Positions 17,303-56,075 of a stretch of 64,000 nt of DNA are shown here, piece by piece. The notes beneath the pieces are model-generated. The model did no database searches, was not told the origin of the DNA, and worked only from the letters and a program-made list of their open reading frames with translations. The position numbers and the translations under genes are program-made. The stretch's first letter is position 1. Each line of letters opens with the position of its first letter. The stretch spans positions 65,426 through 129,425 of the forward strand of contig JAUYRN010000012.1 of the NCBI GenBank assembly GCA_030696775.1, written 5' to 3'. Source of the stretch: Sulfuricurvum sp. (GTDB lineage: Bacteria; Campylobacterota; Campylobacteria; Campylobacterales; Sulfurimonadaceae).

Positions 17303-17452
17303 AAGTATCTCCTACAAGTTGGAACTTAACCGCAGTATAGTCAATGCAATCTCAGAATTAACTTTGCAACTTTTGTTCTTTATACTCTTCAGAGGAAATT
17401 TAAAAATATCCTATCATGCTATAATGGTGCACTATCATAGCTGGAGGATTGG

Positions 17453-46069: not shown

Positions 46070-46897
46070 TTAAAGTGAAAATGCGTAGATATTTTCAAAT
46101 TTGACAGCATGAGCTTCACCATACGACATGTGGATAAACGTCCCTTTTTGCTGAAAGTGGTATTTCTCGTACAATTCAACGGCTTTTGTATTTCCCATCG
46201 GAACATCGGCAAGTACTTTTTTAAGCCCTCTAAAATACAAAACTCCCTGCATCATCTTCTCTGCTTCATCTTCAAACCCCTCACGGCATTGCCATGGTCC
46301 GAGATAGACACCGCGTGCATTAATAACACTGGAGTGTTGGAATGAATTTGGAAGTGCAAATTTCAGTGAGCTGTTCCGTTCCATCTCATCGAGCATAAAT
46401 CCCATACGATTCTCACCAAATGTCTCAAAATCGATTTTACGAATCATCGCATCGAAATTTCCACCGTCAAGCTCTTTGGCCTGAGCATTCGTAAAACTAA
46501 AAGGGGGAACTTTTCCGACATTGAGAAAGCGCCCTACTTCCATAACCGCTTTAAAACCACTCTGCTCAAAAAAAGTCTTAAGCTGAGGATTAGCATGGAG
46601 GTAGAGAGAGGGATGTTCCTCTTTTAAAACACCAAAGAGGGTATTAAAAAGCCGTCGTCCAATCCCTTGTTTTTGATAGGTTGGTTTGACCATAAAATAT
46701 TTTATCATCGCTGAGGATTCAAACTCGATTGCCATGACTGCACCAACAAGCACTCCCTCATCGTAGGCACCATAACACAAATGAGGAGCATGCATCATCA
46801 TGAGTTTGACATGGTATCCATCCAGCAGCCAACCCGTCTCTTCGGCAATTTTAATCAAATCAGGAACATCAACGAACTTTATCCACCCTATATACAT
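46070..46897 (-). CDS. GNAT acetyltransferase (YitH-like two-domain)
   Basis: VKPTYQKQGIGRRLF and a second degenerate GNAT half; coupled to nifV. Confidence 0.8.
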   Translation of the reverse strand: MYIGWIKFVDVPDLIKIAEETGWLLDGYHVKLMMMHAPHLCYGAYDEGVLVGAVMAIEFESSAMIKYFMVKPTYQKQGIGRRLFNTLFGVLKEEHPSLYLHANPQLKTFFEQSGFKAVMEVGRFLNVGKVPPFSFTNAQAKELDGGNFDAMIRKIDFETFGENRMGFMLDEMERNSSLKFALPNSFQHSSVINARGVYLGPWQCREGFEDEAEKMMQGVLYFRGLKKVLADVPMGNTKAVELYEKYHFQQKGTFIHMSYGEAHAVKFENIYAFSL

Positions 46898-48003
46898 GCT
46901 GCATCCTGATAGAGAGATTTAAGTTCGAATACATCCAAAACGCGTTTACGTGAAGTAACAATCTCTCGGATTTTTGGAAGAAGCTCGCTTAATATGCTGT
47001 TATCTGCACTGATACCCATACGCTTTAAATGGTAGCGTATTGTTGCACTGCCAGAGTGTTTACCGATGGGATACGAACTTTCTAGTCCGACTTCTGAAGC
47101 TTGATAAGGCTCATACGCGCTAGAATCTTTCATCATACCGCTTGCATGAATGCCGCTCTCATGGGCGAAAATATGTTCACCCACGACAGGAGCATTGGAT
47201 GCAAGCGTCATATTCGCTGCACCCGCAACTGTACCTACTAAATTTCGAATAAGGAGTGGATCGATGGGACGTGCCTCACCATATAGATGTTTCAATGCCA
47301 TGAGAATCTGTTCAAATGAAGCATTTCCTGCCCTCTCACCTAATCCCATTACCGTAGTATTCATACTAATTGCCCCTGCATCAATTCCGCTAAGAGCATT
47401 TGCATTGGCGAGTCCAAAATCGTTATGAGTGTGCATTTCAATCGGGAGGAGATTTAAATTCGTCAACGATTTGACCGCTTTATACGTTTGTATAGGTGTC
47501 ATAATACCGATCGTATCGCAATAGCGGAAACGCTGTGCTCCACATTCACGGGAAAGCTCCATAACATCTTTAATAAACTCAAAACTGCCTCGTGAGCTGT
47601 CTTCACCGCCTATGCAGACAAACAATCCTTCGCGAGTGGCAGCAGTGACAACTCGTTCGAGTTCGTTTAATACTTTGATTTTACTTCCACCGAATTTTAT
47701 ATCGATCAAAAGATCCGAAATAGGAATGGATAAATCAACCGCTCCAATACCACACGAAAGGGATGCGTCAAGATCTTCCATTTTCATCCGATTCCACGTC
47801 ATCATTCGAGCGCGTAAGCCTAGAGATAAAAGTGCTTTTATATCCTCACGCTCTTTGACACCCATTGCCGCAATACCGATTTCGAGTTCATCCGCTCCGC
47901 ACGCATCCAATAATGTTGCGATACGGATTTTTTCCTCGGTATTGAATGCGACGTAAGCGGCTTGCTCGCCGTCACGCAATGTTGTGTCATTTATGAGTGC
48001 CAT
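46888..48003 (-). CDS. nifV: Homocitrate synthase
   Basis: INDTTLRDGEQ, HTHNDFG, GLGERAGN, HESGIH and GKHSG; downstream of nifB. The true start is MALIND. Confidence 0.92.
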   Translation of the reverse strand: MALINDTTLRDGEQAAYVAFNTEEKIRIATLLDACGADELEIGIAAMGVKEREDIKALLSLGLRARMMTWNRMKMEDLDASLSCGIGAVDLSIPISDLLIDIKFGGSKIKVLNELERVVTAATREGLFVCIGGEDSSRGSFEFIKDVMELSRECGAQRFRYCDTIGIMTPIQTYKAVKSLTNLNLLPIEMHTHNDFGLANANALSGIDAGAISMNTTVMGLGERAGNASFEQILMALKHLYGEARPIDPLLIRNLVGTVAGAANMTLASNAPVVGEHIFAHESGIHASGMMKDSSAYEPYQASEVGLESSYPIGKHSGSATIRYHLKRMGISADNSILSELLPKIREIVTSRKRVLDVFELKSLYQDAACI

Positions 48004-48017
48004 AATAGGTTCCTTCC

Positions 48018-48092
48018 CGTCATCCTCGGGCTTGACCCGGGGATCCATCTTCATTAATGCATAGCTGGATTCCCGCCTTCGCTGGAATGACG
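48018..48092. repeat. CGTC-tagged REP-like palindromic dyad
   Basis: CGTCATCCTCGGGCTTGACCCGGGGATCCA on plus and CGTCATTCCAGCGAAGGCGGGAATCCAG on minus. Each is self-complementary and they lie head-to-head in the nifB-nifV spacer. Confidence 0.75.
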
Positions 48093-48097
48093 ATGTA

Positions 48098-49513
48098 TTA
48101 GTTAACTTCCGCGTTTTCATCCACACCGAAATATTTACGTGACGCTTTGAGGACTGAAATCTCGATTGGCTCATAGGCATAGCTTTGATCCGCCACAATT
48201 CCGGCCGCTTTGAGATCATCTTGTGGACATCCGCCGATTTTAGCCGTCAAAACCATCTGTACATCTTTAAGTTTCTCTAAAATCGGAGCAAGCGGATTCG
48301 TCCCATCAGGACCTGCACAGTATTCTGCATCGACTTTACGGTGATGGATAAATCGAATCCCTTTGTCCCCCGCTTCATAAATCAAGAACTCTTTAACACT
48401 TCCAAAGTGCATGTTAATCATCCCCTCGCCCGCAGTCGTAACCGCAACGAGAATCGTCACACCGTTGGAACTGAGCTCTTCTTTTTCTTTTCGGACACGA
48501 TCATTTGCACGGTCGAGGAAGAATCGGAACTCTTCGATCTTAGCCTGAGCTTCTTGACGCGCTTCGAGGTCGTATTTAATTTGCAGTTCATCGAAACTCA
48601 ACCCTGCAAAGGTATCTTTCGTAAACTCTCCGCCACGGTCTTCACCGATAAGTCCTACGGCATCCGCACGACACTGACGGCAGTGCTGCATCAGTTTCAT
48701 ATCATGACCGCACGCTTCTTGCGCTGCCATTTGCTCTTGGTCAGTTGCACTAGGTACGCCATCAAGGGCAAATTTGGTTCCGAACTCAGGCTCTGAGAGG
48801 ATCGGCATAATGTTATGTAAAAATACCCCAATCTCTTTGAGTTTACGTGATACTTCCGGTAGATGCTGATCGTTAATACCTGGGATCAAAACTGAATTTG
48901 CTTTGATCAAAATCCCTTTTTCGACACATTTACGCATCCCCTCTAGCTGATTTGCCAAGAGTATTTTTGATGCCTCTTTTCCATAGATACGTTTATTGTC
49001 ATGAAAAATCCACGGATAAATCAAACTTCCGATCTCGCCCGTCTCATCAACGCTGTTGATCGTAACGGTAATGTGATCGATGTTGTATTCGACCATCTCA
49101 TCAACAAAGTTTGGTAATTCCAATCCGTTTGTAGAAAGACACAATTTTAAATCCGGTGCAAATTCGCGCACCATACCAAATGTTTCAAATGTCTTTTTAG
49201 GATTTGCCAACGCATCACCTGGCCCTGCAATCCCAAGTACGCTCATACGTTGCACTTCTCCGCCGACGAACATAACTTTCTTCGCCGCTTCCACAGGCGA
49301 GAGGCGTTCAGATGTTACACCCGGACGTGACTCATTCGAACAGTCGTATTTTCGATTACAGTAATTGCATTGGATATTACACGCAGGGGCAACAGCTACG
49401 TGAATACGCGCATAGTGGTGGTGAGCACCTTCTGAATAGCATGGATGATTGTGGATCTTTTCCTTAATATCATCGGGCATAAAAGCTTCGGTTCCAGTTG
49501 ATGAACAGCTCAT
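48098..49513 (-). CDS. nifB: FeMo-cofactor biosynthesis radical SAM protein with C-terminal NifX-like domain
   Basis: HPCY, CNIQCNYC, ESRPG, GIAGPGD, CRQCRADA and a C-terminal HFG. Confidence 0.97.
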   Translation of the reverse strand: MSCSSTGTEAFMPDDIKEKIHNHPCYSEGAHHHYARIHVAVAPACNIQCNYCNRKYDCSNESRPGVTSERLSPVEAAKKVMFVGGEVQRMSVLGIAGPGDALANPKKTFETFGMVREFAPDLKLCLSTNGLELPNFVDEMVEYNIDHITVTINSVDETGEIGSLIYPWIFHDNKRIYGKEASKILLANQLEGMRKCVEKGILIKANSVLIPGINDQHLPEVSRKLKEIGVFLHNIMPILSEPEFGTKFALDGVPSATDQEQMAAQEACGHDMKLMQHCRQCRADAVGLIGEDRGGEFTKDTFAGLSFDELQIKYDLEARQEAQAKIEEFRFFLDRANDRVRKEKEELSSNGVTILVAVTTAGEGMINMHFGSVKEFLIYEAGDKGIRFIHHRKVDAEYCAGPDGTNPLAPILEKLKDVQMVLTAKIGGCPQDDLKAAGIVADQSYAYEPIEISVLKASRKYFGVDENAEVN

Positions 49514-49587
49514 AGTATCTCCTTGTTATTATCATTTTTCAATGATCTTGCCTCATCCGGTGCCAATCATTATCTGAAATCCAGTTA

Positions 49588-49604
49588 TGCAAATAGCGTT
49601 CTTA
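49588..49604 (-). promoter_or_regulatory. Sigma54-like element upstream of nifB (TAAGAACGCTATTTGCA)
   Basis: AG-N10-GC spacing, read directly. Confidence 0.6.
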
Positions 49605-49642
49605 TCGATTAGGAAGTAATCGGGGTGGAATCGTGACAATTT

Positions 49643-49658
49643 TGTATTTATCCAAACA
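49643..49658. promoter_or_regulatory. TGT-N10-ACA NifA-type upstream activator site
   Basis: TGTATTTATCCAAACA, flanked by the inverted pair GTGACAA (49633-49639) / TTGTCAC (49665-49671), midway between two divergent -24/-12 elements. Confidence 0.5.
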
Positions 49659-49700
49659 AAGCCGTTGTCACCTTTTCAAAACTCTATAGATAATGTATGC

Positions 49701-49716
49701 AAGAACAAGAGTTGCA
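49701..49716 (+). promoter_or_regulatory. Sigma54-like element upstream of the NifX-like gene (AAGAACAAGAGTTGCA)
   Basis: AG-N10-GC, with GC about 30 nt before the ATG. Confidence 0.62.
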
Positions 49717-49744
49717 ATAGTTAGGTCAATACAAGGAGCTGACA

Positions 49745-50188
49745 ATGATTGTTGCTATACCGATAGATGCATTCAAGCGTGTCTACCACTACAATCCATG
49801 TAGCGCAACGATGTTCGCACTGTATGAACTTACAGGAGAACGCAACGATATTCGCTATCGACATATAGACTCCAAACTTAACCCTTGGAAGAAATGTGAA
49901 GGTGAGATGGTGTGCGACCCAAAGATGAAAGAAAGCAGCTGTGACACAGATAAGAGCCGTGATCCTCACCACATCAGTGAGCACTATGCCCTTCTCGAAG
50001 TCATCGGCAAATGTGACTATCTTATCACAGGTCAATATTGTCTCAATACCTTTTATGCAATGCGCAATGTCGGAATCAAAATCCATAAGATTCCTCCCTT
50101 TATGAAAACGACCCACGAAGCGATGAACCATTTTATTATAGGAGTCGAAATTGCAGATAGTCTACAACACATCCACGCTGTATCTTGA
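49745..50188 (+). CDS. NifB/NifX-like cofactor-binding family protein with Cys-rich insert
   Basis: MIVAIP N-terminus, FALY strand, CDYLITG and GIKIH; divergent from nifB. Confidence 0.6.
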   Translation: MIVAIPIDAFKRVYHYNPCSATMFALYELTGERNDIRYRHIDSKLNPWKKCEGEMVCDPKMKESSCDTDKSRDPHHISEHYALLEVIGKCDYLITGQYCLNTFYAMRNVGIKIHKIPPFMKTTHEAMNHFIIGVEIADSLQHIHAVS

Positions 50189-50657
50189 AGATATGCCTCT
50201 CGATGTCGGTTATGCCTCTGAAAAAGTGAGCCTTAAAAACCACAAAGATGAGACATTTACCATCGGAGGACAAAACGGATTTACCCAGCTCATATTTTCG
50301 ACCCCTTTTATAAATGATGTGCTTCTAGCACAGTTGGAAGAGATCGATACCTTGTTAGGCCTTAATGCACTGCAAGGTATTACGAAAGCTCTTGTCGTTG
50401 CCAATGGCCAACATGAATTGCCTACACTCGAAGAGTGGTTAAGCGGATATGATCATGATGAGGCTTACGGGGATTATTACGGTGTTCGACTTTCTAATAA
50501 AGAACTTGCCAAATCGCTATTTATTATCTCCAAAGATGGAGCAATCTTCTACCACGAGATTCTCAGTGATTTAAATGCACCATTTAGTATTGACAAAGCA
50601 CTTGCAAAGATCGTCGCTGCCAATAGCTGTTACACAGGTAAAGGGTGTCATGGGTAA
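50151..50657 (+). CDS. Tpx (thiol peroxidase)-like protein without peroxidatic Cys
   Basis: Aligns with Tpx (VGY..V.L, QLIFSTP, YGV, LAKSLFII) but lacks the DTxVC motif. TTG start with a GGAG RBS. Confidence 0.65.
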   Translation: MQIVYNTSTLYLEDMPLDVGYASEKVSLKNHKDETFTIGGQNGFTQLIFSTPFINDVLLAQLEEIDTLLGLNALQGITKALVVANGQHELPTLEEWLSGYDHDEAYGDYYGVRLSNKELAKSLFIISKDGAIFYHEILSDLNAPFSIDKALAKIVAANSCYTGKGCHG

Positions 50658-50693
50658 GTTTTTTTGTGGTAAAATCAAGGCAAGCTATTTGAT

Positions 50694-50757
50694 CCCATTT
50701 TCCCTGAGCTCGTCGAAGGGTAAGAAGTTCATGGTTCGACTGGTTCATCACGAACGG
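50694..50757. repeat. Degenerate REP-like element (CCCTGAGCTCGTCGAAGGG ... GGTTCGACTGGTTCATCACGAACGG)
   Basis: Partly complementary halves (GTCGAA/TTCGAC) that resemble an intergenic repeat family I recall from other bacteria. Family assignment is unverified. Confidence 0.45.
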
Positions 50758-50773
50758 AAAAAAGGTAATTTGA

Positions 50774-53272
50774 ATGGCAATAATAATTCAACCGAATATG
50801 CGACTTGAAGACGTCGAATTTTACAAATATCTACAATCTATCACAAGCCCTTTTCTATCAAATATCGAATCTATAGTTCAAGAAAAAACTATTGTTTTAG
50901 CTAATGAAATTCCAAAAGTTTTTGATACCTATACAATACACGACATAAACCATTCCCTCAGAATTCTTCAACATTGCTACTGTTTAGTTCAGGATAAAAT
51001 AACAGAGATGAATGAACTAGACATCGTCATCCTTTTCTATTCTGCAATACTGCATGACATTGGTATGGCTGTAAGCACAGAAGAGTTAGAACAAATCAAA
51101 ACACAGGGATACAACTATAACGGACTAAAATTTTCTGCAATGCTCCATCAGCGAAATAATGATGAAAAAATTGCGATGCAAGATTTTATCCGAACAATTC
51201 ACGCAGACAGAGCCAATAATTATGTCTTGAATGAACAAAAGAGTAAATATTTACTTCCTTATCAGGAATTTGCAGATTTTCGAGCAGAAGTAGGTAAGGT
51301 TTGCGCATCACATGGTAAAGACTTCTTATGGATTCTAAAAAACCTCTCCAGTGAAACGCTTAAAGGAACCTATAAATTCAATTTACAATTTTGCTCATTT
51401 TTATTGAGATTAGGTGATCTTCTGGACTTTGATAGCAACAGAACACCACCTGTCTTGTATAAGATGATTGAACCTACTGGATATGGAAAAGCTGAATGGC
51501 AACAGCATTTTATGATCAAAAATTTCCAAAAAATCATAGAAAATGAGTCAAAACAAAAAACGATTACTATCATTGGTGAGTCTGATAATCCAAAAATTCA
51601 TAGAAAATTCTTGATGTATCTTAAATGGATTGAAAATGAGGTCGCATCCGTTATTAATGCATTGAAAAAAATGCCGTTATCCTATCAACTCAATTTAAAC
51701 CCTTTTTTGGAGGTCAATATTACGACTTCCAGCTACACCTTCTCCGACAAAAAACTATCAATAGATTATCAGGCCATCACCAAACTTTTGATGGGTGAAA
51801 AAATTTATGGTGACAAAAAACTCGCCCTTAGAGAAATGATTCAAAATTCAATAGATGCGTGTAAACTCAGAAAAGAATTTGAAGATTACAAAAAGCAATA
51901 TGGAGATGAAGAATTCACTGCTTCAATCAAAATAATCATCAATCGTGAAGCGGGCTATGTTGCTATAAAAGACAACGGTATGGGAATGACTATGGATATA
52001 GTCAACAACTATTTTTTAAATATAGGGAAATCCTACTATACCTCGGAATCATTTTTATTAGAAGAGTATAGTTATAAACCGATCGGAAATTTCGGTATCG
52101 GATTTTTAGCCTGTTTTATGCTATCTGATGAAATAAAAATCAGGACAAGGCATATTGATTCAGAGAATAAAATTTCTATTTCATTGGAAAAAGAGAGTGA
52201 ATATATCACACTCCATGAAGAACAAGATGTCCAGTTTGACGGAACAGAAATACTATTTAACTACAGTTCATTTATGAATGAATTTGACAATGATATTGAT
52301 AAATTAAACAAATTTTTAATTCCTCTATTTCTAATCGATGATTTTTCTATTAAAGTTGTTGATGTAGGCGAAAAACAAACTTATGAACTAAAAAATACTT
52401 TATCGCTAAATTCTCAAGACTTGAAACCTAATGAACATATTTTACCTCTTACAGAGTTTTTAAATGGGATTGATGGAAGTATAATTGTCAGATATTATGA
52501 TAGATACATTGATGATTTAACTGATATCACGGAAAAAGAAACTTATTATGTTTATAATAATTTGCGTTTAGAAAAAATAAACTCATCATATAATTTAAGT
52601 GAACTATATCATGATGGTGCATTTTATTTTATAGAGATTCCAATTATTACTTATCAGGATAGAGAGAATTATGATAAATATGCAGAAGCTTTAGATGATG
52701 ACTTAGATAATGTTATTGACAAACTTTCAGAAAATTCTGATTGGATTACTATTTTTTACGATCCAAAAGAAGTAAAAAATATTACCGAAGGCTTTATTGA
52801 CATTGAAATAGATAATATTATGAACAATATTTCATTTAAAGATTTACTCCCATTTGGTCAGGATCAAATATTACCTACAAAAGTATATTTACATCAAACA
52901 AAAGCTCATTTGCAAAAAAATAGATATTTACCTTATGGGAATCGAGAAACAAGATTTTATTACTTTTTTAATAAAGAAGTGAAAACCTATTTAAGAAATA
53001 TTTTAATAAGTGATTTTAAACTTCGTCCTGAGAATTTAGCAGATATATTTACAATTGAAGATTATAAAATCAATGTTATTAACAGAGATATTATTCCATC
53101 TATTTCAAGAAACAATTTTGATCAAAAAACAAATGACAAATTAACTTACGCTTTAACAAAAGCCATACATTTGTCTGCATTAAAATATATAAATTTAGAT
53201 GATACGAAGAAAGCTTTATTAAAAAGTTTTATAGACGAGTATTTTAGTGAAGTGACAAATTTAGAATCATAG
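50774..53272 (+). CDS. HD-domain + HSP90-like GHKL ATPase fusion (832 aa), probable conflict/defence protein
   Basis: YTIHDINH..RI, LHDIGM and LRLGDLLD (HD domain); LREMIQNSIDA, DNGMGM and GNFGIGF (HATPase N, G1 and G2 boxes); AT-rich variable C-terminus. Confidence 0.85.
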   Translation: MAIIIQPNMRLEDVEFYKYLQSITSPFLSNIESIVQEKTIVLANEIPKVFDTYTIHDINHSLRILQHCYCLVQDKITEMNELDIVILFYSAILHDIGMAVSTEELEQIKTQGYNYNGLKFSAMLHQRNNDEKIAMQDFIRTIHADRANNYVLNEQKSKYLLPYQEFADFRAEVGKVCASHGKDFLWILKNLSSETLKGTYKFNLQFCSFLLRLGDLLDFDSNRTPPVLYKMIEPTGYGKAEWQQHFMIKNFQKIIENESKQKTITIIGESDNPKIHRKFLMYLKWIENEVASVINALKKMPLSYQLNLNPFLEVNITTSSYTFSDKKLSIDYQAITKLLMGEKIYGDKKLALREMIQNSIDACKLRKEFEDYKKQYGDEEFTASIKIIINREAGYVAIKDNGMGMTMDIVNNYFLNIGKSYYTSESFLLEEYSYKPIGNFGIGFLACFMLSDEIKIRTRHIDSENKISISLEKESEYITLHEEQDVQFDGTEILFNYSSFMNEFDNDIDKLNKFLIPLFLIDDFSIKVVDVGEKQTYELKNTLSLNSQDLKPNEHILPLTEFLNGIDGSIIVRYYDRYIDDLTDITEKETYYVYNNLRLEKINSSYNLSELYHDGAFYFIEIPIITYQDRENYDKYAEALDDDLDNVIDKLSENSDWITIFYDPKEVKNITEGFIDIEIDNIMNNISFKDLLPFGQDQILPTKVYLHQTKAHLQKNRYLPYGNRETRFYYFFNKEVKTYLRNILISDFKLRPENLADIFTIEDYKINVINRDIIPSISRNNFDQKTNDKLTYALTKAIHLSALKYINLDDTKKALLKSFIDEYFSEVTNLES

Positions 53273-53373
53273 GGTTGGAGTAAATTCGAACCAATATTAA
53301 ACATTTTTGTCTCTTCTCACCCCATTCTCTCCAAAATCCTACAAAATAAGATAATTTTACTCCTATTTCCAAC

Positions 53374-53389
53374 AAGAACGCAAAATGCA
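53374..53389 (+). promoter_or_regulatory. Sigma54-like element upstream of SIR2-clpP-clpX (AAGAACGCAAAATGCA)
   Basis: AG-N10-GC, with GC about 34 nt before the ATG. Confidence 0.58.
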
Positions 53390-53421
53390 ATATTCCATTC
53401 AAAGTTCCAAAAGGGATCACG

Positions 53422-54252
53422 ATGGACACACAAATCGAAACAATAAAAAAAGAATTACGCAATCAAACCACCATTCCCTACTTCGGATTGGGTGTCTTTG
53501 AGGGGATCATGACAAAAGAGGGAGAAGCCGTTCCTCATGACAGTGATTCGCTGATTTTGGCGATGAATGGCGGGCGGGCTATGGCTCCACGCCTCATGTT
53601 TGAGTACTCACGTGCGGCGATGCATTTGGAACAGCGTCGCGGTGTCGAGTACATGACACAGCTTATGAATCATATCTATACCAAACCATTCGAGCCGACA
53701 CCATTGCACAAAGCGATCATTGATATGTCACCACGCTACATCGTTGATACCAATCGCGACACGAAGTTTCAAGAACTTTTAGCGTTTACTCCGCATTGTC
53801 TCATCATTGGTAAATCACGCATCATGGGTGATTTAAACCGCTATGAAACGTATGAATACGATGTTGAGAATCAGAAATATTTTCTCGTAGATGATGAGGT
53901 GCTAGAGAGTGCGGAAAAAATCCTCTTCAAACCGATGGGCTCACCGTTACCTAATCCAACCTTTGTCATCTCCGATGCCGATTACGTAGATTGGCTTACC
54001 GAAGCGATGGGAGGATTTGCCGTGCCAAAAGTACTAAAAACCTACCGTAAAGCAAAAAAATATCTCTTTTTAGGCACATCTTTCGGTCACGATACCGATC
54101 GGATGGTGGCTAACGAGCTTAGCTTTGATTTGGAGGGTGGATATGTCATCACCGATCAAGAGCTGGGGAAAAAAGAGAAAAAGTTTATCGAGAAACACAA
54201 TATTGAAGTGATTCCTATGTCACTTCAAGAATTTATCCAAGCATTCATTTAA
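53422..54252 (+). CDS. SIR2-like family protein (nif-associated type)
   Basis: IPYFGLGV, IVDTNRD, LFKPMGS, ISDADYV and YLFLG, the SIR2_2 pattern. Confidence 0.75.
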   Translation: MDTQIETIKKELRNQTTIPYFGLGVFEGIMTKEGEAVPHDSDSLILAMNGGRAMAPRLMFEYSRAAMHLEQRRGVEYMTQLMNHIYTKPFEPTPLHKAIIDMSPRYIVDTNRDTKFQELLAFTPHCLIIGKSRIMGDLNRYETYEYDVENQKYFLVDDEVLESAEKILFKPMGSPLPNPTFVISDADYVDWLTEAMGGFAVPKVLKTYRKAKKYLFLGTSFGHDTDRMVANELSFDLEGGYVITDQELGKKEKKFIEKHNIEVIPMSLQEFIQAFI

Positions 54253-54263
54253 AGGAGATAATC

Positions 54264-54857
54264 ATGCCTTACTTACCTACAGTTAAAGATGTTTCGCCTC
54301 GCGGAGAGCGTTATTTCGATTTGTTTTCCAAACTTTTAGGCGATCGTGTCATCGTTATCACCGAAGCAATTGATGATCACATGATGGGGATTATCGTTTC
54401 TCAACTGCTGTATCTGGAAGCGATGGATTCCGAAGAACCGATTCATGTTTACATCAGTTCACCGGGTGGTTCAGTGATGAGTGGATTAGCCATATTAGAT
54501 ACTATGAACTTAATCAATGCCCCCGTGCATACCTATGCCATGGGGATGGTAGCATCGATGGCGGCGGTGTTATTTACCTGTGGGGAAAAAGGGCATCGTT
54601 ATATGCTCCCTAATGCAGAAGTGATGATTCATCAGCCATTGGGCGGCTATTCGGGTCAAGCAAGCGACATTGAGATTCATACGAAACATATCCTCAATCT
54701 CAAACGCCGTTTGTATGTGATCCTCGCTGAGGCGACGGGGAAAAGTGCCAAAGTGATCGAAAAAGAATCCGACCGCGACAACTACATGGAAGCCAAAGAA
54801 GCAATCGAGTTTGGCTTAGCGGATACGATTTTGACTAAATTCAGTGCGAAGGATTGA
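54264..54857 (+). CDS. clpP: ATP-dependent Clp protease proteolytic subunit
   Basis: YISSPGG, ASMA (Ser), MIHQP (His) and RDNYM (Asp). Confidence 0.95.
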   Translation: MPYLPTVKDVSPRGERYFDLFSKLLGDRVIVITEAIDDHMMGIIVSQLLYLEAMDSEEPIHVYISSPGGSVMSGLAILDTMNLINAPVHTYAMGMVASMAAVLFTCGEKGHRYMLPNAEVMIHQPLGGYSGQASDIEIHTKHILNLKRRLYVILAEATGKSAKVIEKESDRDNYMEAKEAIEFGLADTILTKFSAKD

Positions 54858-54860
54858 GTG

Positions 54861-56075
54861 ATGAATACTGAAAAAAACTGCTCATTTTGCGGACGACCAC
54901 AGCGTGAAGTGAAAAAAATGTTCTCCTCGGAGACAACCCATATTTGTAACGAGTGTATCACAACTTGTTCAGCAATACTTCAAAAGGAAGTACGCTACGA
55001 GCAACGCTCCGAAATGCAGCAACAGCTCCCTATTCCCGAAAAGATCGTGGAGTTTTTAGACAAATACATCATTGGTCAAGTGGATGCGAAAAAAGTCCTT
55101 GCCGTTGCATTGTACAACCACTACAAACGCATTGAAAACCCGATTTACAATAATGTTGAGTTGGAAAAAAGCAATATTCTCCTCGTAGGGCCTACGGGAA
55201 GCGGTAAAACATTACTTGCCAAATCGCTTTCAAAAATCATGCAAGTTCCGTTTGCCGTTGCTGATGCAACAGCACTCACCGAAGCTGGATACGTAGGGGA
55301 AGACGTCGAAAGCATCCTCTCTCGTCTCCTTGCCGCAGCCAACTATGACATCGAGCTCGCACAACGAGGAATCATCTACATCGACGAGATCGATAAAATC
55401 GCCCGCAAGTCAGAATCTTCTACTATGGGACGTGATGTTTCCGGTGAAGGGGTACAACAAGGGTTACTCAAAATTCTTGAAGGGGCAGAAGTGTACGTCC
55501 CAGTCAAAGGGAGCCGTAAAAACTCCACCACCGAAACGGTATTATTCAATACTACTCACGTCCTCTTCGTCTGTGGCGGTGCGTTTGTTGGTCTTGTACC
55601 CGATACCCATACTAAAAAGTCAAATAAAGTCGGATTTAGTAAAAGTACGGCAGAAACCGTCGTTAAACCTAAAAAGATCGATGCCAAAGCGCTCGTCCAT
55701 TACGGGATCATCCCTGAGTTTATCGGGCGTATCCCCGTCGTTGCACAGCTGACCGAGCTTACCAAAGAGCAAATGGTGCAAATCCTCCAAGAACCGGACA
55801 ATGCTCTTATCAAACAATTTCAAGCGCTGTTTGATATGGACGGTATCGAGCTAAACTTCGAAGCCAAAGCCCTCGATGCCGTTGCCCAAAAAGCAATCGA
55901 CCGTGGTGTAGGCGCACGCGGATTACGCAGTATTATCGAAGAAGCGATGCTGCCGTTGCAATTTAGCTGCCCATCGAAAAAGAATCTACAAAGCCTCACC
56001 ATCACTGAAGCGGTGATCGAAGACCCAACCAATGAACCGATTTACGTATACAAAGAAGAACAAGCCCAAGGGTAA
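54861..56075 (+). CDS. clpX: ATP-dependent Clp protease ATP-binding subunit
   Basis: CSFC..CNEC Zn finger, [26 protein letters not shown], a VGF loop and GARGLR. Confidence 0.96.

Follow-up and report, generated by a model that had tools for sequence, protein, structure and literature searches.

We describe a gene for an HD-CE phosphohydrolase joined to an HSP90-like ATPase, found in the nitrogen fixation (nif) cluster of a Sulfuricurvum sp. (GenBank assembly GCA_030696775.1, contig JAUYRN010000012.1, positions 65,426 to 129,425; this stretch of 64,000 nucleotides is hereafter called the window). The gene is the only open reading frame (ORF) of a self-contained cassette that was recently inserted between two native genes of the cluster. 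We consider it probable, with some reserve, that this acquired one-gene cassette encodes a single-protein immune system of the HD-CE + HSP90 family, working as a combined switch, sensor, and hydrolase. The protein is a further member of a family that had already been predicted computationally, and not a new kind. What the locus adds to that family prediction is the exact borders of an insertion, a minimal cassette, an invariant arginine (R779), and a fast-evolving C-terminal region.

If the prediction is true, the family would provide a widespread immune system made of one protein, with at least 2,386 clusters spread over Campylobacterota, Bacteroidota, Firmicutes, and gut bacteria, in which a chaperone-type ATPase serves as sensor and switch and an HD hydrolase as effector; our literature search returned no experimentally characterized example of this pairing. 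The locus is also a clean natural experiment, as insertion-bearing and empty alleles exist with exact borders between them. It offers several handles: H94 and D95 of the HD domain, E354 of the ATPase, the invariant R779, and a swappable C-terminal region that may set specificity.

Domain architecture and active sites of the HD-HSP90 protein

The ORF runs uninterrupted on the + strand, exactly over the interval 50774 to 53272 claimed by a first-pass annotation made from the sequence, and encodes 832 amino acids (aa). An alternative start at 50798 corresponds to the ATG taken by gene callers elsewhere, which gives an 824-aa form; alignment shows the longer N terminus to be common to four relatives. 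The same annotation had read the protein as an HD phosphohydrolase followed by a GHKL/HSP90-like ATPase, and profile searches bear out both assignments. The N-terminal part matches the Pfam HD-CE family PF24391 over 261 of 263 profile positions (E = 4e-49; 168.1 bits against a gathering cut-off of 27). Downstream of it, aa 351 to 475 match HATPase_c_3 (E = 3e-11, Pfam), and aa 327 to 506 align with the first 180 positions of the NCBIfam HtpG profile, that is, with the HtpG N-domain (E = 3e-24). HSP90 N-domains are likewise the top PDB sequence matches of the protein (E ~ 1e-13).

Both active sites are intact. Conservation was read from two alignments, one of 34 relatives and one of 115 representatives of clusters formed at 50% identity. 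The HD residues H56, H60, H94 and D95 (in the motif LHDIGM), H143, H180, D215, and D218 are all present and are kept in 114 to 115 of the 115 representatives. In the ATPase, E354, N358, D361, D400, G402, G404, G441, G443, and T491, which make up the GHKL motifs ExxxN, DxGxG, GxxGxG, and GT, are invariant or nearly so across the same set. An AlphaFold2 model of the whole protein has a mean predicted local distance difference test score (pLDDT) of 85.

Comparison with HSP90/HtpG places the protein close to this group and outside it at once. The two are alike in the N-terminal ATPase fold and its motifs, in fold matches that reach the middle domain, and in a loop (here S-R-N) whose invariant Arg is reminiscent of the catalytic-loop Arg of HSP90. 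In contrast to HSP90, the window protein carries an N-terminal HD domain, has a C-terminal region without detectable HSP90 sequence similarity, and shows no identifiable separate C-terminal dimerization domain. Its scores against the two HtpG equivalog models, NF003555 and NF010683, are 85.3 and 83.8 bits, whereas the cut-offs are 371 and 455, and the alignments take in only about the first 180 profile positions.

Insertion of the cassette into the nif cluster

Some 35 Sulfuricurvum loci share the gene order GNAT-nifV-nifB-orf147-Tpx-like-SIR2-like-clpP-clpX, and in the window the HD-HSP90 gene breaks this order, with nifB, orf147, and the Tpx-like gene on one side and the SIR2-like gene, clpP, and clpX on the other. 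The window NifB is 100% identical to that of several Sulfuricurvum metagenome-assembled genomes, and 67 related loci were retrieved for comparison. By tblastn, the gene is absent from the ~35 syntenic Sulfuricurvum nif loci and also from those nif loci of Sulfurovum and Sulfurospirillum that retain the Tpx-like, SIR2-like, and clpX genes. In 11 of the loci without the insert, the Tpx-like and SIR2-like genes directly follow each other, abutting or overlapping by a few bases, an arrangement that the first-pass annotation had singled out as the one to look for in relatives.

Three sequences define the borders. In an empty site, locus L006, which has the same 133-nt spacer between the Tpx-like and SIR2-like genes, homology to the window stops at 50659 and restarts at 53301. 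In another groundwater metagenome (run X2), a contig passes from 50662 straight to 53298 and skips 2,635 nt. Finally, an independent copy (P0004, on contig L158) with 79% aa identity is 81% identical in DNA over 50663 to 53274, leader and ORF included, and lies directly beside a HepT/MNT (HEPN-nucleotidyltransferase) toxin-antitoxin pair (L158:137-765). Because L006, the X2 contig, and the L158 copy agree, we take the mobile unit to be 50663 to 53297, which comprises a leader, a single ORF, and a 25-nt tail. Read depth in runs X2 and X3 is 140 to 460 over the flanks and 0 to 5 over the insert; the dominant populations there therefore lack it. Transposon or integron-like ends were rejected: inverted repeats are missing at the termini, no target duplication is convincing, and neither a recombinase nor a tRNA is present.

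The composition of the gene is foreign as well. At 0.294, its GC content is the lowest in the window, where the remaining 46 ORFs have 0.415 ± 0.032 (z = -3.7), and the last third of the gene reaches 0.243, with a GC content at third codon positions (GC3) of 0.14. The AT-richness remarked on earlier, strongest late in the gene, is thus real. As the cassette is so low in GC, an Arcobacter-like, low-GC member of the Campylobacterota is suggested as its donor. Horizontal acquisition into one Sulfuricurvum lineage, as first proposed from the sequence, is strongly supported by the empty sites in relatives and in the metagenome contig, by the aberrant GC, and by recurrence of the same leader and ORF in an unrelated context; neither conserved synteny nor host-like composition was found. 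A phage origin was ruled against, as a scan of viral contigs with the single protein was empty and a profile scan of 2.9 million such contigs returned 3 full-length copies.

A fast-evolving C-terminal region with one invariant arginine

The roughly 300 C-terminal aa that the first-pass annotation could not assign remain without a sequence-family match (aa ~507 to 832; Pfam, NCBIfam, and PDB profile search). The best PDB fold matches of the full model are HSP90s, either full length or comprising the N-terminal and middle domains (HtpG, GRP94, and TRAP1; E down to 5e-13), and the alignments span 520 to 590 columns, well past the N-domain. When the C-terminal 328 residues are modelled alone (pLDDT 86), the weak top matches are almost all transducer-bearing GHKL proteins, namely, ParE/GyrB, HtpG, Hsp90, TRAP1, and MORC2/3.

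Within this otherwise poorly conserved region, R779 of the S-R-N motif stands out as the one invariant residue. The ATPase site of HSP90 is completed by an arginine of the middle domain that lies in an L-S-R-E loop; a transducer lysine plays the equivalent part in GyrB and MutL. Given the fold matches and the likeness of the invariant R779 to this arginine, we read aa ~507 to 832 as probably a divergent HSP90 middle/transducer-like region; by analogy, R779 is a candidate transducer "arginine finger." Distant members of the family show the HD-CE + GHKL core followed by ~400 Pfam-dark residues, and a Pfam scan of these members found no known alternative sensor domain at the C terminus.

The domains evolve at markedly different rates. 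Relative to the closest relatives, aa identity is 93 to 94% in the HD region and 94 to 96% in the GHKL region, versus 49 to 71% over aa 506 to 690 and 60 to 81% over aa 691 to 832. Ratios of nonsynonymous to synonymous divergence (dN/dS) against the L158 copy are, in the same order, 0.07, 0.03, 0.32, and 0.21. Related copies in other metagenomes yield reads that map to the HD-GHKL part (likeness, ≥90%) and leave 52446 to 53180 uncovered. A fast-evolving tail on a conserved enzymatic core is the pattern expected of a surface for specificity or sensing. The earlier suggestion that a divergent C terminus acts as the sensor therefore stands insofar as this is the fast-evolving part of the protein; the region is not a foreign add-on, as its length is conserved across the family, it aligns structurally with the HSP90 middle domain, and it holds an invariant arginine.

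Family distribution and genomic company

A scan of 1.84 billion representative sequences at E ≤ 1e-30 recovered at least 2,386 family clusters (50% identity), most of them ~830 aa long and matched by the profile from end to end, with a constant architecture. Arcobacteraceae, many Bacteroidota, Paenibacillus, and gut bacteria are among the hosts that could be named. In 33 of 34 non-redundant metagenomic loci, the gene is GC-poorer than its flanks, by a mean of 6.3 points (Wilcoxon p = 6e-10).

To describe the company that the gene keeps, 117 immediate neighbours (two genes on either side) from 37 non-redundant loci were compared with PADLOC and Pfam models. Defence genes among them match PDC-S06 (to 4e-271), LmuB (3e-107), BrxC (E = 0), and PifA (1e-87, standing for 35 gut loci). 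Further neighbours are Ppl-, AriA-, and PtuA-like ATPases, DRT reverse transcriptases, and proteins with N6_Mtase, ResIII, Schlafen/AlbA_2, or nSTAND3 domains, and mobility genes (integrases, relaxases, and ParA/ParB) occur as well. One copy, in an island bounded by an integrase, is directly preceded by an RNase_T gene and an OLD-type ATPase-TOPRIM gene; another is in a Paenibacillus island with recombinases, an AAA+S8 peptidase, Fic-MazE, IS21, TnsA/WYL, and RE_ScaI; and a third sits in a Bacteroidota conjugative element, between topoisomerase/DUF3945 and coupling protein/relaxase genes. BLAST clustering of the neighbours identified no conserved partner gene across the 37 loci, in line with the view that the system consists of a single gene.

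Relation to known systems

In 2023, Nicastro et al. (Nucleic Acids Res 51:11479) reportedly named the Calcineurin-CE, HD-CE, and PRTase-CE groups and presented HSP90- and HSP70-related modules as switch analogues of STAND NTPases, coupled to CE effectors. That work is also said to have assigned HD-CE to nucleotide targeting and to have predicted HD-CE + HSP90 proteins as single-protein immune systems. The window protein agrees with these systems in having the same two domains in the same order, in being encoded by a single gene, and in belonging to a mobile family of which many copies, though not all, lie near defence genes; no architectural difference separates them, whereas the window copy is solitary in a nif cluster and not in a defence island.

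CE stands for conflict effector, and a 2026 preprint (PMC12871103) credits to Nicastro, Burroughs, Iyer, and Aravind both this nomenclature and the prediction that CE effectors target nucleotides. For the sister class Calcineurin-CE, in the arrangement PUA-Calcineurin-CE-HAD, depletion of deoxynucleoside triphosphates (dNTPs) after sensing of a trigger is experimental (PMC12871103). The window protein resembles nucleotide-depleting effectors, both this system and those of the dGTPase/dCTP deaminase type, as a predicted pool-collapsing phosphoesterase. Unlike PUA-Calcineurin-CE-HAD, it has an HD instead of a calcineurin fold, an HSP90-like ATPase in place of PUA, and no partner phosphatase. The PADLOC dNTPase models gave no match to it.

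A second point of comparison is VcSduA, a GHKL ATPase with a Shedu nuclease, in which defence depends on the residues of the ATPase as well as on those of the nuclease (PMC12137116). VcSduA and the restriction enzymes BbrUII/HgiDII share with the window protein a GHKL ATPase and a hydrolytic effector on one polypeptide. Here, in contrast, the effector is an N-terminal HD-CE rather than a C-terminal PD-(D/E)xK nuclease, and the GHKL module is of the HSP90 subtype. The BbrUII/HgiDII model (NF050001) scores 38.6 bits against a cut-off of 550, with ~100 residues of the GHKL core aligned.

Proposed mechanism and alternative explanations

In the mechanism that we favour, the HSP90-type GHKL module would act as an ATP-driven switch, perhaps as a dimeric clamp, in which the N-domain would bind ATP and the C-terminal transducer-like region would supply R779. 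The fast-evolving C-terminal surface would recognize a protein or nucleic acid from the invader, in a way similar to client binding by the HSP90 middle domain. The resulting conformational or oligomeric change would release the N-terminal HD-CE, a predicted metal-dependent phosphohydrolase, which would then degrade nucleotides (less likely nucleic acid) and so halt phage replication, possibly at a cost to host growth.

The defence role proposed by the first-pass annotation is supported by association only, through the defence and mobile neighbours and the low GC of the gene in nearly all loci. Several observations weigh against it, or against parts of the mechanism. PADLOC-DB v2.0 has no model for the protein, and its sole match, a weak one to REase_II (E = 1.6e-5), is confined to the GHKL core (aa 383 to 479), so that the suggested PADLOC check brought up no defence system. 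The window copy and its two nearest relatives on long contigs are solitary among housekeeping genes. Strong as it appears, the defence-gene company is semi-quantitative, as it comes from pooled neighbours without a matched control set. Concerning the sensor, the C-terminal domain on its own matches no structure significantly (best E = 0.24), and synonymous divergence is also higher in the C-terminal part (dS ~1.0 to 1.4, versus 0.57 to 0.68 elsewhere), so recombinational exchange rather than diversifying selection may account for the pattern, at least in part. Concerning the effector, solved structures show only generic HD-superfamily similarity to the HD part (Ddi2/3; PDE9A, E = 0.04), and for this reason homology does not reveal the substrate. 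Finally, the literature search found no experimental work on HD-CE or on any HD + HSP90 protein, and no paper naming HD-CE, PF24391, or an HD + HSP90 defence protein.

Other explanations were considered. The gene could be cargo that serves mobile elements, either as an exclusion or competition factor against rival plasmids and conjugative elements or as an addiction-like toxic module that would stabilize its carrier DNA, with any anti-phage role secondary or absent. That one clade resides inside Bacteroidota conjugative elements fits this idea, as do the copies found among recombinases, IS21, Tn7-like genes, and toxin-antitoxin pairs, the recurrence of relaxase, ParA/ParB, and integrase genes among neighbours, and the three copies on contigs classed as viral. 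However, the window cassette is chromosomal and has neither a mobility nor a partner gene, many relatives abut classical anti-phage systems, and no antitoxin-like partner is conserved across the 37 loci. We judge a pure cargo role to be fairly unlikely, and mobile context does not separate it from defence, because mobile elements commonly carry true defence genes. Unlikely, too, is a nuclease effector, in which GHKL would clamp or scan DNA in the manner of MORC/paraMORC, MutL, or the GHKL restriction enzymes, and HD, like its Cas3 counterpart, would cleave the DNA or RNA of the invader. Its case rests on restriction enzymes being the closest non-chaperone GHKL matches (BbrUII/HgiDII, E = 5e-10, and the REase_II match), on GyrB/ParE and MORC2/3 transducers among the weak matches of the C-terminal model, and on the many conserved basic residues of HD-CE in the alignment of relatives (R63, R140, R212, R223, K253, R277, and K278). 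Yet the best matches in both sequence and fold are to HSP90 proper and not to MutL, MORC, or topoisomerases, the PADLOC Cas3-HD model does not match the protein, no recognizable DNA-binding domain was found with Pfam, and nucleotides are reportedly the target assigned to HD-CE in the 2023 prediction.

A housekeeping or nif-related function was weighed as well: an HtpG-like chaperone with a regulatory HD domain, for instance, a cyclic-nucleotide or alarmone phosphodiesterase, could assist nitrogenase maturation or stress signalling. The location in a nif cluster beside clpP/clpX and a Tpx-like gene, the HSP90-like ATPase itself, and faint phosphodiesterase similarity (a weak PDEase_I match across the H..HD motif, E = 0.003 in Pfam, and the PDE9A match) would suit such a role. 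However, none of the other Sulfuricurvum nif loci examined has the gene, nor do those of Sulfurovum and Sulfurospirillum that retain the Tpx-like, SIR2-like, and clpX genes. In addition, its GC and GC3 are foreign, its score is far short of the HtpG equivalog cut-off (85 versus 371 bits), and its relatives, found in Bacteroidota, Paenibacillus, and gut bacteria, occupy unrelated contexts. On the evidence of synteny and composition, this explanation is effectively excluded, and we regard it as very improbable.

Returning to the single-protein immune system, we also put forward a more detailed version, tentatively and with considerable doubt. An HSP90 chaperone module may have been repurposed as an immune receptor, such that a hypervariable middle-like surface would capture a phage "client" and ATP-dependent closure using R779 would license nucleotide destruction by HD-CE. 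The unit would travel as a minimal cassette of promoter and ORF without a recombinase, and in its present position in a nif operon, read-through could tie it to nitrogen-fixing conditions.

Cassette leader and promoter motifs

The leader of the cassette, identified by direct reading of the window and L158 copies, starts with TGGTAAAAT, an extended -10-like element at 50667 to 50675 that would constitute a putative promoter of the cassette. It has no Rfam match and folds no better than shuffled sequences (z = -0.44), which rules out a structured RNA or riboswitch. The first-pass annotation had seen a degenerate REP-like repeat ahead of the gene; this was not reproduced: 50655 to 50775 is not repeated in the window or anywhere in 170 fetched loci, and it corresponds instead to the conserved cassette leader.

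The window holds three copies of the motif AAGAAC-N5-6-TGCAA, versus 0.31 expected: at 17364 to 17380 (-), at 49701 to 49717 (+), ahead of orf147/Tpx-like, and in the native spacer before the SIR2-like gene (Table 1). It is probably the nif motif meant by the earlier annotation, which had placed the HD-HSP90 gene between two motif-driven units without a motif of its own; the copies at 49701 and 53374 and the lack of one in the leader agree with that description. The motif is possibly a degenerate -24/-12 promoter of the sigma-54 type that serves nif-linked units. The canonical sigma-54 consensus, TGGCAC-N5-TTGCW, shows no enrichment within the window.

A separate observation concerns the leader stretch 50727 to 50760 (31 to 34 nt, with the hairpin GTTCGACTGGTTCATCACGAAC), which was found in three other metagenomes on short, high-depth contigs (depth up to 145 to 287) with different flanks. 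The stretch is not repeated in the window or the fetched loci; in other genomes, it may represent a short dispersed element.

Table 1. Coordinates of the cassette, its parts, and the flanking native features in the window
Feature	Position	Strand	Evidence
ORF, 832 aa, HD-CE + HSP90-like ATPase	50774..53272	+	ORF calling, Pfam, NCBIfam
HD-CE phosphohydrolase domain, aa 50-290	50921..51643	+	Pfam PF24391
HSP90-type GHKL ATPase N-domain, aa 327-506	51752..52291	+	Pfam, NCBIfam, PDB sequence matches
C-terminal region, aa 507-832, probable HSP90 middle/transducer-like domain	52292..53269	+	Fold matches, dN/dS
Codon of R779 (motif S-R-N), candidate ATPase "arginine finger"	53108..53110	+	Invariant in 115/115 representatives
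Inserted cassette, 2,635 bp (leader, single ORF, 25-nt tail)	50663..53297	+	Empty-site contig, L006, L158
Cassette leader, 111 nt	50663..50773	+	Conserved with the L158 copy
Native upstream gene, Tpx-like	50151..50657	+	Kept in ~35 Sulfuricurvum loci; weak thiol-peroxidase matches
AAGAAC-N6-TGCAA motif in native spacer before SIR2-like gene	53374..53390	+	Motif scan; spacer also in L006
Native downstream gene, SIR2_2-like	53422..54252	+	88-99% identical in relatives without insert; normal GC

Native nif neighbourhood

The SIR2-like gene downstream of the cassette is native and not a partner of the insert, because it is kept in insert-free strains and is linked to the Tpx-like gene and clpX near nif elsewhere. 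A two-gene system with this neighbour was ruled out, given its high identity in all insert-free relatives. For annotation, the HD-HSP90 gene should thus not be counted with nitrogen fixation, nor the SIR2-like gene with defence.

Cargo at the junction between 50657 and 53422 differs from strain to strain. In eight other loci it consists of DUF3050; a PAS protein; PLDc_N-SHOCT with CorA and MscS; a ParE toxin with a transglutaminase fragment; or heme oxygenase with a phytochrome-HD-GYP protein. As the cargo varies in this way, the Tpx-like/SIR2-like junction is a variable, recombination-prone spot within the nif cluster and no dedicated defence hotspot. Nor does the locus in the window form a defence island.

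Some observations on the surrounding genes can be added. A unit of Tpx-like, SIR2_2-like, and ClpX genes (50151 to 56075; in Sulfuricurvum, ClpP as well) is nif-linked across genera, being found in two Sulfurovum loci and one Sulfurospirillum locus, with cross-genus identities of 27 to 29% for the Tpx-like protein, 45 to 49% for the SIR2_2-like protein, and 63 to 66% for ClpX. The nifB/orf147 junction (49514 to 49745) is a second variable junction, holding 2 to 5 kb of extra DNA in many relatives (14 loci). The orf147 gene itself (49745 to 50188, +) is present in all Sulfuricurvum nif loci at 56 to 99% identity and matches neither Pfam nor NCBIfam models; it runs over the TTG start listed for the Tpx-like gene. 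On the - strand, the listed nifV ORF (46888 to 48219) overlaps nifB (48098 to 49513) by ~120 nt. Its N-terminal extension is long and poorly conserved, relatives matching 82 to 84% of the ORF only, and the true start of nifV probably lies further downstream.

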